Shown: positions 2,327 through 5,008 of the stretch, one piece after another
How positions within the stretch are numbered: position 1 is the first letter of the stretch
Layout of the letters: each line of letters begins with the position of its first letter
Sequence record: PV714130
Direction: 5' to 3' (one strand)
DNA length: 40,625 bases
Source: Escherichia phage Pipis
Program-made: the position numbers and the translations under genes
Notes under the pieces: generated by a model
The model's input: the letters and a program-made list of their open reading frames with translations, nothing else
Database searches by the model: none
Told to the model about the DNA's origin: nothing

Positions 2327-5008
2327 ATGAGCGTCATCTCTATTGACAAACACGACTTCTCTGATGTGTCGAACGCAATTGAGCCGTTTAACCTGCTTGC
2401 CGACCACTACGGGCAAGACCTTGCAGTCAAGCAGCTTCAGCTTGAGCATGAGGCATACACTGAAGGCGAGCGACGTTTCATCAAGAACCTTGAGCGACAG
2501 ACTGAGCGCGGGGAACTGGCAGACAATCAGGTCGCCAAGCCTTTGATGCAGACTCTGGTTCCTAAGATTGCGCAAGCCGTCAAGGAGTGGCACGAAGGTC
2601 CAGACGGGAAGCTGTCAACCTCTCGTCCTAGCGTAGCGTTCACCATGTTGAGCACTGAAGAGAAGGCCGTCAAGGACCGCTCTCTTCGCATCTCCTGCGA
2701 GTCTGCTGCGGTTATCATACTGAAGGTCATCCTCTCCAAGCTGGTCAAGCCTGAAGGGATACCGATTACACCGATGGCCTCCGCGATAGGTCGCACACTT
2801 GAGGACGAAATCCGCTTCGGTCGCATCCGTGACAAGGAGAAGGAGCACTTCAAGAAGGCGATAGCTGAGAACTTGAACAAGCGAGCTGGGGCATCCTACA
2901 AGAAAGCCTACATGCAAGCGGTCGAGGCCTCCATGTTGGAGCAAGGACAACTGGAAGATGCGTGGGGAACTTGGAGTCCGACCGAGGCTGTCCACGTTGG
3001 CATCAAGATGCTTGAGATTGTCATCCAGTCAACACAACTGGTCGAGCTTAAGCGGTACGGTGCTGGCAATGCAGCGGCTGACGTAGAGATGGTCCACCTG
3101 TCAGACTTCTGGGTCAAGAAGATGGCACAACGCGGCTTTAGCCTTGCGGGTATCGCCCCAGTCTACCAACCTTGCGTCGTTCCACCTAAGCCGTGGACCG
3201 GTGTCGTAGGCGGTGGGTACTGGGCCAAAGGTCGCAGACCATTACCACTGATTCGCTTAGGGTCTAAGTCTGCGGTGGCACGTTACGAAGACGTGTATAT
3301 GCCTGAAGTCTATGACGCTGTTAACATCATCCAGAATACACCTTGGAAAGTGAACAAGAAGGTTCTGGACGTGGTGAACATGGTCGAGAAGTTGAACAAC
3401 ACGCCTATTGATGACATCCCTCAGATGGAGCCACTGAAGCCTGAAGAATATGCGGGTGAGACTGAAGAGGAACTCAAGGCGTGGAAGAAAGCGGCTGCTG
3501 GTATCTATCGCCGCGAGAAGGCCAGACAGTCACGCAGATTGTCACTGAGCTTTATCGTTAACCAAGCTAACAAGTTCTCTCAGTTCAAGGCCATCTGGTT
3601 CCCGTACAACATGGACTGGCGCGGTAGAGTCTACGCTGTGCCGATGTTCAACCCTCAGGGTAACGACATGCAGAAGGGCCTCCTGACTCTGGCAGTCGGT
3701 AAGCCTATTGGTGCTGATGGTTTCAGATGGCTGAAGGTCCACGGTGCAAACTGTGCGGGTATTGATAAAGTAACCTTCGAGGAGCGCATCAAGTGGGTGG
3801 AAGATAACCACGACAACATCATGGCTACCGCTAAGGCACCGATGGACAGCATTGAGTGGTGGGGTAAGTTAGACTCTCCGTTCTGTTTCCTCGCGTTCTG
3901 CTTCGAGTATGCTGGCGTAATGCACCACGGCCTGTCTTACTCCTGCTCGCTACCGATAGCGTTCGATGGGTCCTGCTCTGGGATTCAGCACTTTAGCGCG
4001 ATGCTTCGTGATCACATCGGTGGACATGCAGTAAACCTGACGCCTTCCGGTAAGGTCCAAGACATCTACCGCATCGTGTCTGACCGCATTGAGGAAGAGC
4101 TTAAAGTCCTGCTGGTTAACGGCACGGACAACGAGATGGTAACTCACGAGGACAAGAAAACTGGTGAGATTACCGAGCGTCTCAAGCTGGGGACACGAGA
4201 GCTGGCCCGTCAGTGGCTGACCTACGGTATGTCACGCAAGGTTACTAAGCGCTCAGTCATGACTCTGGCCTACGGGTCGAAAGAGTACGGCTTCGCAGAC
4301 CAAGTTTACGAGGACATCGTGATGCCCGCGATTGACTCAGGGTCTGGCGCTATGTTCACCGAACCAAGCCAAGCGTCCCGCTTCATGGCTAAGATGATTT
4401 GGGAAGCTGTGAGCGTGACCGTAGTTGCTGCGGTAGACGCTATGAAGTGGCTTCAAGGTGCTGCCAAGCTGCTGGCTGCTGAAGTGAAAGACAAGAAGAC
4501 TGGAGAAATCCTGAAGCCTTGCCTTCCGGTACACTGGGTCACGCCTGATGGGTTCCCGGTCTGGCAGGAATACCGCAAGAAGGATACCACGCGTCTGAAC
4601 CTGATGTTCTTAGGGTCATTCAACCTTCAACCTACGGTCAACAAAGGCACGAAGAAAGAGCTGGACAAGCACAAGCAGGAGTCAGGCATTAGCCCGAACT
4701 TCGTCCACTCACAAGATGGAAGCCACCTCCGCAAGACCGTAGTCCACACGCACCGCAAGTATGGCGTGATGTCGTTCGCAGTGATTCACGATAGCTTCGG
4801 GACCATCCCTGCTGACGCTGAGTATCTGTTCCGTGGTGTCCGTGAGACGATGGTCGAGACCTACCGCGACAACGATGTGCTGCTTGACTTCTACGAGCAG
4901 TTTGAATACCAGCTTCACGAGAGCCAGCGCGATAAGTTGCCAGAGCTTCCGAAGAAAGGTAAACTGAATATCGAAGACATCTTGTCTTCAGACTTTGCAT
5001 TCGCTTAA
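2327..5008 (+). CDS. 1: T7-type single-subunit DNA-dependent RNA polymerase
   Basis: 893 aa, alignable with recalled T7 RNAP along its length; catalytic motifs DGSCSGIQHFSAM and HDSFGT; C-terminal FAFA. Confidence 0.97.
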   Translation: MSVISIDKHDFSDVSNAIEPFNLLADHYGQDLAVKQLQLEHEAYTEGERRFIKNLERQTERGELADNQVAKPLMQTLVPKIAQAVKEWHEGPDGKLSTSRPSVAFTMLSTEEKAVKDRSLRISCESAAVIILKVILSKLVKPEGIPITPMASAIGRTLEDEIRFGRIRDKEKEHFKKAIAENLNKRAGASYKKAYMQAVEASMLEQGQLEDAWGTWSPTEAVHVGIKMLEIVIQSTQLVELKRYGAGNAAADVEMVHLSDFWVKKMAQRGFSLAGIAPVYQPCVVPPKPWTGVVGGGYWAKGRRPLPLIRLGSKSAVARYEDVYMPEVYDAVNIIQNTPWKVNKKVLDVVNMVEKLNNTPIDDIPQMEPLKPEEYAGETEEELKAWKKAAAGIYRREKARQSRRLSLSFIVNQANKFSQFKAIWFPYNMDWRGRVYAVPMFNPQGNDMQKGLLTLAVGKPIGADGFRWLKVHGANCAGIDKVTFEERIKWVEDNHDNIMATAKAPMDSIEWWGKLDSPFCFLAFCFEYAGVMHHGLSYSCSLPIAFDGSCSGIQHFSAMLRDHIGGHAVNLTPSGKVQDIYRIVSDRIEEELKVLLVNGTDNEMVTHEDKKTGEITERLKLGTRELARQWLTYGMSRKVTKRSVMTLAYGSKEYGFADQVYEDIVMPAIDSGSGAMFTEPSQASRFMAKMIWEAVSVTVVAAVDAMKWLQGAAKLLAAEVKDKKTGEILKPCLPVHWVTPDGFPVWQEYRKKDTTRLNLMFLGSFNLQPTVNKGTKKELDKHKQESGISPNFVHSQDGSHLRKTVVHTHRKYGVMSFAVIHDSFGTIPADAEYLFRGVRETMVETYRDNDVLLDFYEQFEYQLHESQRDKLPELPKKGKLNIEDILSSDFAFA

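Follow-up and report, generated by a model that had tools for sequence, protein, structure and literature searches.

A K1F-type specificity loop and its ACTAT promoters in the Kayfunavirus coliphage Pipis

Background

Synthetic biology and in vitro transcription make standard use of orthogonal phage polymerase/promoter pairs, and the residues that set promoter choice, once known, permit the design of new pairs. In the RNA polymerase (RNAP) of phage T7, R756 contacts the template G at -9 (PMC8874028; PMC5937735), Q758 contacts the A at -8 and R746 the template G at -7 (PMC8874028), and N748 reads -10/-11 (PMC5937735). The limits of the specificity loop in T7 RNAP used here (residues 739-770) are those of PMC8874028 and PMC5937735, and the AT-rich recognition loop (residues 93-101) is defined as in PMC8874028.

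The closest described system is that of phage K1F. Temme et al. (2012) transferred the K1F hairpin to T7 RNAP (PMC3458549); the net changes in the T7(K1F) chimera are Q754S, R756N and I761V (PMC11880802 Table 2), and with a promoter carrying ACTAT at -12 to -8 the chimera is active and orthogonal to the T7, T3 and N4 variants (PMC3458549). In the source data of PMC4299498, where the background is 5-7, the T7 fragment has an activity of 6326 on PT7 and 19 on PK1F, and the fragment with the K1F loop (plus M750R) has 2448 on PK1F and 260 on PT7; cross-recognition is therefore far from full. The orthogonality is asymmetric: the K1F loop retains about 10% activity on PT7. Zhu et al. (2025) rate the Temme set as no more than 8-fold orthogonal (PMC11880802), and native K1F RNAP with PK1F is in use for orthogonal expression and as a mutator system (PMC12218169). 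Others have thus shown that the loop is sufficient for specificity and that the pair is orthogonal. K1F is also a named cluster in the family-wide work of Zhu et al., where direct coupling analysis of the T7-like family linked position 756 to -10/-9, 748 to -11/-10 and 758 to -8 (PMC11880802).

The polymerase gene and its genome

The window, that is the whole stretch of 40,625 nucleotides analysed (PV714130), is the genome of a K1F-like coliphage of the genus Kayfunavirus. Over its full length it matches K1F (DQ111067 / NC_007456) and relatives with 92-97% coverage and about 94-96% DNA identity; it is collinear with K1F, and nucleotide similarity and synteny together place it in the genus. Positions 2200-5400 are 96.3% identical to K1F in DNA. 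The gene of interest is the following:

2327..5008, + strand: gene 1, a single-subunit T7-type RNAP of 893 aa, identified by homology

Its product is 99% identical to K1F gp1 (7 differences in 893 residues, none of them in the specificity loop) and 64% identical to T7 RNAP in a MAFFT alignment. In a phmmer search against the PDB, residues 1-893 match T7 1-883 (E = 0, 1277 bits; 1cez/1aro); this full-length match gives the two enzymes a common fold and domain order and, with a C-terminal catalytic region that closes in FAFA (...SSDFAFA), assigns the protein to the T7 type.

A set of eleven promoters

Searched with the 17-mer TAAACTATCACTATAGG and at most 3 mismatches, the whole genome yields 12 matches, every one on the + strand, where 0.10 would be expected by chance; a count of 12 was reached in none of 100 shuffles. 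Eleven of the 12 are intergenic and each of these has its counterpart, one to one, in K1F, whose promoter list was derived in this analysis because the K1F GenBank record annotates no promoters. On the basis of the 17-mer match and the K1F counterpart, these sites are predicted promoters (given from -17 to +6):

2235..2257, + strand: promoter, +1 at 2252, TTAACTATCACTATAGG, 75 nt before the start codon of the RNAP gene
5313..5335, + strand: promoter, +1 at 5330, exact 17-mer
6960..6982, + strand: promoter, +1 at 6977, TAAGCTATCACTATAGG (G at -12)
8027..8049, + strand: promoter, +1 at 8044, TAAACTATCACTGTAGG (G at -3)
10378..10400, + strand: promoter, +1 at 10395, TAAACTATCACCTTAGG (2 mismatches, -4/-3), the most divergent of the 11
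17025..17047, + strand: promoter, +1 at 17042, exact 17-mer
20255..20277, + strand: promoter, +1 at 20272, exact 17-mer
21254..21276, + strand: promoter, +1 at 21271, exact 17-mer followed by GGGAGA, upstream of the ORF corresponding to the K1F capsid gene
25662..25684, + strand: promoter, +1 at 25679, TTAACTATCACTATAGG
33378..33400, + strand: promoter, +1 at 33395, exact 17-mer, upstream of the tailspike ORF 33448-36642
39640..39662, + strand: promoter, +1 at 39657, TTAACTATCACTATAGG, the rightmost site

The consensus of the 11 predicted promoters is (a/c)CTAAACTATCACTATAGG. The earlier note on this DNA had ten of the 11 share the 17-mer, a count that is right if one mismatch is allowed (10 of 11) and too high for exact matches (5 of 11); CTATCACTATAGG is common to nine of them. 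Positions -15, -13, -11 to -5, -2 and -1 are invariant across all 12 matches. With a K1F-class promoter defined as ACTAT at -12 to -8 followed by CACTATAGG, and ACTAT being the published core of that class (PMC11880802), the Pipis set falls in the K1F class: its core is ACTAT in ten promoters and GCTAT in the remaining one. The twelfth match, at 34601, was considered as a further promoter and rejected; it lies inside the tailspike ORF, has T at +1 and 3 mismatches, is absent from K1F and is probably not a promoter.

For comparison the T7 consensus TAATACGACTCACTATAG was recovered from 16 T7 sites. Against it the Pipis consensus is identical from -8 to -1, as had been noticed earlier, and also at -13 and at +1/+2. 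The six positions reported to differ (-9 to -12, -14 and -15) all do so, with ACTA in Pipis against CGAC in T7 at -12 to -9 and CT against AA at -16/-15; further differences lie at -16 (C in place of A) and -17 (A/C in place of T). Moreover, Pipis has a promoter directly before gene 1, whereas in T7 there is none within 400 bp of it.

Residues of the specificity loop

The loop was aligned with MAFFT together with the RNAPs of K1F, T7, T3, K11 and SP6, and by a second route through the phmmer match to T7 RNAP in the PDB. The two routes agree on an ungapped offset of +10 between Pipis and T7 numbering through the whole specificity loop, which sets the following correspondences:

4571..4666, + strand: specificity loop, residues 749-780 (T7 739-770), with the same sequence as the K1F loop
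4592..4594, + strand: codon CGT, R756 (T7 R746), from the alignment
4598..4600, + strand: codon AAC, N758 (T7 N748), from the alignment
4616..4618, + strand: codon of S764 (T7 Q754), from the alignment
4619-4630, + strand: FNLQ where T7 has FRLQ, from the alignment
4622..4624, + strand: codon AAC, N766 (T7 R756), from the alignment
4628..4630, + strand: codon CAA, Q768 (T7 Q758), from the alignment
4637..4639, + strand: codon of V771 (T7 I761), from the alignment

The earlier note had placed an unchanged Asn, the counterpart of T7 N748, at 4598-4600, and at 4622-4624 an Asn in place of T7 R756, within FNLQ instead of FRLQ; in the ungapped alignment N758 and N766 stand exactly there, and the six-way alignment, which includes the T7, T3, K11 and SP6 RNAPs proposed for a pairwise check, leaves both where they were put. 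The Arg that reads -7 (R756 in Pipis) is invariant in this alignment, so the hairpin is recognisable as a specificity loop. T7 and Pipis thus have R746, N748 and Q758 in common (T7 numbering), and differ in R756, Q754 and I761, which are Asn, Ser and Val in Pipis, as well as in the rest of the C-terminal side of the loop. All the residues of the K1F class, the subfamily of that name in Temme et al. (2012) and the cluster in Zhu et al. (2025), are present, namely N, N and Q at T7 columns 748, 756 and 758 with S754 and V761.

A second recognition element was located in the N-terminal part:

2603..2635, + strand: equivalent of the AT-rich recognition loop of T7 (residues 93-101 there), DGKLSTSRPSV, from the alignment

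Compared with T7, this element has a 2-residue insertion and fewer basic residues in Pipis.

Co-variation across the family and within Kayfunavirus

RNAP loops were compared with promoters at 84 loci. The promoter finder of this survey was anchored on CACT; three mis-called loci, namely a 21-bp tandem array at a genome end (L047), a one-site fragment (L038) and a locus with two sites (L052), were checked by hand and left out of the argument, and for SP6 (L005) and a truncated locus (L019) the loop did not align with the T7 segment. Loops with N748, N756 and Q758 are paired with ACTAT in 21 of 21 loci, and every loop type having R at 756 goes with C at -9. The KP32-like 'KNF' group has Asn at 756 with TA at -10/-9. 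In K11 RNAP the column of T7 R756 is likewise occupied by Asn (N779), but this enzyme differs from that of Pipis in having K at columns 748 and 758 and a GG(A/G)CA core, with C at -9. A simple code in which Asn at 756 means A at -9 was rejected, the K11-type enzymes combining this Asn with C; since Asn756 pairs with either C or A at -9, its reading depends on context, that is on 748, 758 and neighbouring residues.

A closer comparison is given by Cronobacter phage GW1 (Kayfunavirus GW1), whose RNAP is 88.5% identical to that of Pipis and has D748, T754 and R756 in the loop. The orthologous GW1 promoters are at the same positions with matching flanks, and most of them have CC at -10/-9 where Pipis has TA; those recovered include one just upstream of the polymerase gene. 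A-12 and C-11 are common to the promoters of Pipis, T3 and GW1. GW1 and T3 combine D748 and R756 with ACCCT and Pipis combines N and N with ACTAT, so that only -10/-9 and the two contact residues separate Pipis from the GW1 type. A further member of the genus (L018) has K748/Q756 with AGGTA.

Promoter specificity might then have been switched wholesale within Kayfunavirus, the recovered orthologous promoters changing together at -10/-9, but we regard this as speculative and rather unlikely. The polymerase gene's own promoter may supply selective feedback. If intermediates exist, Kayfunavirus would offer a natural minimal-step system, of two contact residues and two base pairs, in which to follow the joint evolution of a polymerase and its roughly 11 scattered promoters while the phage stays viable; Zhu et al. 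(2025) have already set out the general principle, 'bridging' promoters among it (PMC11880802).

How the loop may read the promoters

The residue correspondence, the promoter set, the identity with K1F and the natural co-variation are observed here, and very probably Pipis is to be explained as a K1F-like phage whose K1F-type loop substitutions match its ACTAT promoters. Gene 1 RNAP would transcribe the middle and late genes of the phage from the 11 promoters and, as in T7, the beta-hairpin of the specificity loop would reach into the major groove between about -12 and -7, where it would read the bases. At the downstream end the contacts would be those of T7, with R756 (T7 R746) and Q768 (T7 Q758) kept together with their target bases: every one of the 12 matches has C at -7, and at -8 the promoters of Pipis and T7 both have T. 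At -9, the Arg that in T7 hydrogen-bonds the template G is replaced by N766, and the promoters have an A:T pair at this position. N766, S764 and V771 together would shift the preference of the loop from CGACT to ACTAT at -12 to -8, and T7 RNAP would therefore hardly use Pipis promoters; the K1F-type loop, for its part, prefers ACTAT promoters to T7 promoters about tenfold.

The phmmer search of the PDB found no K1F-type RNAP-promoter complex, and how N766 and N758 would contact -9 to -11 at the atomic level is inferred. R756N can account only for -9/-10. N758 (T7 N748) is conserved although -11/-10 is CT here and GA in T7, and the four core differences therefore cannot all be due to this one substitution; possibly the amide of Asn758 is flipped relative to T7 and reads C-11/T-10 instead of G-11/A-10. 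On whether R756N would suffice by itself, the one published indication is the statement of Zhu et al. (2025) that all clusters other than K1E and SP6 had one or more active pairs (PMC11880802). At -14/-15 and -16/-17 the promoters differ where the N-terminal AT-rich loop does the reading. This loop, too, is divergent here, and its counterpart in Pipis likely reads the differences from -13 to -17.

By analogy with the identical loop in a T7 backbone and with native K1F RNAP, the Pipis enzyme would be expected to discriminate between T7 promoters and its own. The earlier note had interpreted the loop and promoter changes as co-variation defining an orthogonal pair, an interpretation that full recognition of T7 promoters would contradict; the published activities of the K1F loop (PMC4299498) are far from such recognition, and experiments on the identical loop and promoter core lend the interpretation their support.

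It could be argued instead that the difference from T7 is set mainly outside the specificity loop, in the AT-rich loop, the intercalating hairpin or other N-terminal elements, with R756N a passenger. The strong divergence and the insertion in the AT-rich loop counterpart, the promoter differences from -14 to -17 in the region that this loop reads, and a simulated directed evolution from T7 to T3 specificity, in which residues outside the loop contribute (PMC8874028), all point in that direction. The hairpin alone (754S, 756N, 761V), however, together with a promoter changed only at -12 to -7, is enough for activity and discrimination (PMC3458549, PMC11880802, PMC4299498); the specificity signal detected by direct coupling analysis lies in the loop (PMC11880802), and between Pipis and GW1 the change at -10/-9 tracks loop residues 748 and 756. 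The chimeras largely refute the proposal for -12 to -8, leaving it plausible for -13 to -17 only, and as an account of the whole difference we judge it very unlikely. Far less probable still, to the point of being negligible, is that the 17-mer is some other dispersed repeat, for instance a packaging, replication or recombination signal, and that its match to the loop is a coincidence. Its promoter role in Pipis is read from sequence, and the extra near-match is intragenic; yet the 11 sites all lie between genes, on the coding strand and directly 5' of ORFs, and are T7-like from -8 to +2 in their consensus, the ACTAT core works in vivo with K1F-loop and native K1F polymerases (PMC3458549, PMC4299498, PMC12218169), and promoter and polymerase loop vary together in the survey of 84 loci.

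Relation to known systems

The K1F-type loop matched to ACTAT promoters, the reading preferred here, makes the Pipis polymerase/promoter pair one that is already known: the K1F type was mined and transplanted in 2012 and re-analysed across the family in 2025, and the K1F pair already serves synthetic biologists as an alternative to T7. The present case is a rediscovery in a new K1F-like isolate, in which the reasoning from raw sequence was sound and the biology is not new; what it adds, on a small scale, is a clean comparison with GW1 inside the genus and a conserved phage promoter before the polymerase gene.

With T7, Pipis shares the gene order. The 11 promoters of K1F stand at the corresponding places and match those of Pipis in almost all the positions compared; as in Pipis, their core at -12 to -8 is ACTAT, and T7 columns 754, 756 and 761 of the polymerase are S, N and V. 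Pipis is a separate isolate, with ~95% genome-wide DNA identity to K1F and several small differences in gene content, and K1F is without the promoter-like near-match at 34601; in the elements of polymerase-promoter recognition the two phages are no different.

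The window carries the K1F polymerase and its promoters

The plus-strand ORF 2327..5008 encodes an 893-aa protein that matches T7 RNA polymerase end to end (phmmer: E = 0, 1277 bits, query 1-893 versus T7 1-883); in the C-terminal third the two proteins align without gaps, at a fixed offset of +10. At the DNA level this region shares 96.3% identity with Escherichia phage K1F and 98.3% with PhiNW-B1, a phage listed with an E. coli K1 strain as host, and Kayfunavirus genomes show about 94-96% identity to the whole window. Between the enzyme and K1F gp1 there are 7 differences in 893 positions, all outside the specificity loop. 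Moreover, window and K1F are collinear, and 11 K1F sites pair one-to-one with 11 window promoters, their flanks mostly matching. The polymerase and promoters of the window are thus the K1F system in a new isolate. RefSeq records NC_007456, NC_007636, NC_048023 and NC_048161 name such T7-type gene 1 products "N4-like RNA polymerase", a misleading label for a single-subunit enzyme of the T7 family.

With respect to the K1F record the window is circularly permuted, as seen at window 1-253 and 40310-40526: position 1 corresponds to K1F 319, and the left end of K1F (1-193, the terminal-repeat region) has its 88% match at 40310-40526. No exact terminal repeat was found at the window ends. Five short segments without a megablast match to K1F (7256-7686, 14623-15081, 15594-16036, 18288-18690 and 29057-29508) break up DNA that is otherwise 92-97% identical; small genes have probably been replaced there in mosaic fashion. 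The K1F annotation places a homing endonuclease within the gene for DNA polymerase, close to the second and third of these segments.

The 17-mer TAAACTATCACTATAGG has 12 matches at three or fewer mismatches, all on the plus strand, against 0.10 expected by chance (none of 100 shuffles gave 12). Eleven are intergenic and lie immediately upstream of ORFs. The twelfth (34601-34617, TGAACTATCACTGTATG) was rejected as a promoter: it lies inside the tailspike ORF 33448-36642, with T at +1, three mismatches and no K1F counterpart, and probably has no function or serves at best as a weak internal start. Five of the 11 promoters are exact 17-mers, ten are within one mismatch and nine have CTATCACTATAGG in common, so that the earlier note's count of ten sharing the 17-mer stands with one mismatch permitted and fails for exact identity. 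The consensus from -17, taking the first G as +1, is (a/c)CTAAACTATCACTATAGG; from 16 T7 sites our script recovered the T7 consensus TAATACGACTCACTATAGG. As the same note had claimed, positions -8 to -1 are those of T7 and -9 to -12 and -14/-15 differ; in addition, -13 is shared and -16/-17 also differ.

Loop residues and promoter cores co-vary

Codons of the specificity loop were taken straight from the window sequence:

4592-4594, plus strand, CGT: R756, equivalent to T7 R746
4598-4600, plus strand, AAC: N758, equivalent to T7 N748
4616-4618, plus strand: S764, equivalent to T7 Q754
4622-4624, plus strand, AAC: N766, equivalent to T7 R756
4628-4630, plus strand, CAA: Q768, equivalent to T7 Q758
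4637-4639, plus strand: V771, equivalent to T7 I761

The phmmer alignment and the codons agree with the residues first proposed (Asn retained at T7 748, Asn in place of R756, FNLQ versus FRLQ), and a MAFFT alignment with the T7, T3, K11, SP6 and K1F polymerases places them identically. In T7 the specificity loop (739-770) reads the major groove from about -11 to -7, where R746 contacts template G-7, Q758 A-8, R756 G-9 and N748 the pairs at -10/-11 (PMC8874028; PMC5937735). The readers of -7 and -8 are kept in the window along with their bases, whereas Asn replaces the Arg that reads G-9, and -9 is A:T.

We surveyed 80 related IMG/VR loci together with K1F, T7, T3, K11 and SP6, extracting loops by tblastn, deriving promoter consensuses de novo per locus and checking doubtful cases by hand.

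Table. Loop residues at T7 columns 748/756/758 and promoter core at -12 to -8.
N/N/Q: ACTAT (21 of 21 loci having this loop)
N/R/Q: CGACT, AGACT or (C/G)AACT (T7-like)
D/R/Q: ACCCT (T3-like)
K/N/K: GG(A/G)CA (K11 type)
K/N/F and K/D/F: GGTAG
K/Q/R: AGGTA (L018, a K1F-like locus, only)

Arg at 756 goes with C at -9 (template G) in every such loop type surveyed, and loops with another residue there have A, C or T. This pattern agrees with the loss, in K1F, of an Arg-guanine contact at -9. No simple code can be read from Asn at 756, since K11 combines it with C at -9. In L047, a T7/BA14-like phage, the de novo search took an array of 11 tandem 21-bp units, ATT[AG]AGGAACCACTGAGTATC, near the left genome end (204-434) for promoters; its true promoters are TAATA(C/G)(A/G)AACTCACTATTG.

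The cleanest comparison is Cronobacter phage GW1 (L050), which is classified in Kayfunavirus and whose polymerase is 88.5% identical to that of the window. Its loop is RLDLMFLGTFRLQ, against RLNLMFLGSFNLQ in the window; columns 748, 754 and 756 are occupied by D, T and R in GW1. The GW1 promoters are orthologous in position, often with identical transcribed starts:

384, 5860, 9910, 13425, 15155, 16074, 18172, 20488: GW1 promoter sites

At most orthologous sites GW1 has CC where the window has TA at -10/-9, and T instead of C at -16; the promoters 75-76 nt upstream of gene 1, for example, read TAAACCCTCACTATAGGactcaagg and TTAACTATCACTATAGGactcaagg, respectively. Compared with this T3-like core ACCCT, the K1F core ACTAT is changed at -10 and -9 only. 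Since the differing residues 748 and 756 are those whose contacts are assigned to -10/-9, GW1 explains the pattern better than T7, where N748 is unchanged although -11/-10 change. This looks like a concerted switch of promoter specificity within one genus. A further locus, L020, is also of the GW1 type. L018 (RNAP 79% identical, K1F-like backbone) has a third specificity: its loop, RIKLMFMG-VQYRPT, has a one-residue deletion and K, Q and R at 748/756/758, and its promoter is AAGGAAGGTACACTATAGG (sites 3358, 6360, 8071, 9106 and 11445).

The earlier note had matched the promoter differences at -9 to -15 with a substitution in the loop. The observation is confirmed, with the promoter count corrected, but one substitution cannot account for the whole interval. 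N758 may read C-11/T-10 through a flipped amide (donor/acceptor rather than acceptor/donor), a stereochemically reasonable guess, whereas in T7 this Asn recognizes G-11/A-10; no structure of a K1F-type RNAP-promoter complex was found in the PDB copy searched. Positions -13 to -17 are covered by the AT-rich recognition loop (T7 93-101; PMC8874028). Its window counterpart (93-103, nt 2603-2635) reads DGKLSTSRPSV where T7 has KAKRGKRPT; it contains two inserted residues (KL) and is poorer in basic residues than the T7 or GW1 loop. The altered loop is the probable partner of the conserved C at -16, found in 11 of the 12 window matches (A in T7, T in GW1). Shortly after it, residues 110-120 form an 11-residue insertion relative to T7.

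A phage-type promoter precedes the polymerase gene

A phage-type promoter lies at 2235-2257 (+1 at 2252), ahead of the polymerase ATG at 2327. Such a promoter, 75-102 nt upstream of the start codon, is present in every K1F-clade locus examined (window, L001, L006-L025, L018, L020 and L050), and GW1 and L018 keep it despite their different cores. The 400 bp ahead of gene 1 contain none in T7, T3, K11 and six other T7/T3/K11-type loci. The contrast points to positive autoregulation of gene 1 in the K1F clade.

Comparison with known orthogonal systems

By phage genome mining, Temme et al. (2012) delimited a K1F subfamily of hairpins that has a promoter core of its own; with this hairpin replacing Q744-I761 in T7 RNAP and -12 to -7 exchanged in the T7 promoter, the pair was active (17-fold induction) and orthogonal to T7, T3 and N4 variants (PMC3458549). 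According to Zhu et al. (2025; PMC11880802), that chimera has 754S, 756N and 761V as its net substitutions and ACTAT as its cognate core; the window carries exactly these residues and bases. In the source data of Segall-Shapiro et al. (2014; PMC4299498; background 5-7), a T7-loop fragment gave 6326 on PT7 and 19 on PK1F, and a K1F-loop fragment (plus M750R) 260 and 2448. Discrimination by T7 against PK1F is strong and that by the K1F loop against PT7 about tenfold; the pair is orthogonal, but asymmetrically. Direct coupling analysis of T7-like phages by Zhu et al. links column 756 to -10 and -9, 748 to -11/-10 and 758 to -8, and their specificity network includes a named K1F cluster (PMC11880802).

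The proposal that polymerase and promoter co-vary as an orthogonal pair is therefore supported, by the published chimera and by our survey. The feature itself is not new: it is part of the natural biology of phage K1F and has also been engineered into an orthogonal part. Native K1F RNAP with PK1F is employed for orthogonal expression and as an orthogonal mutator system, beside the MmP1 and VP4 polymerases (PMC12218169).
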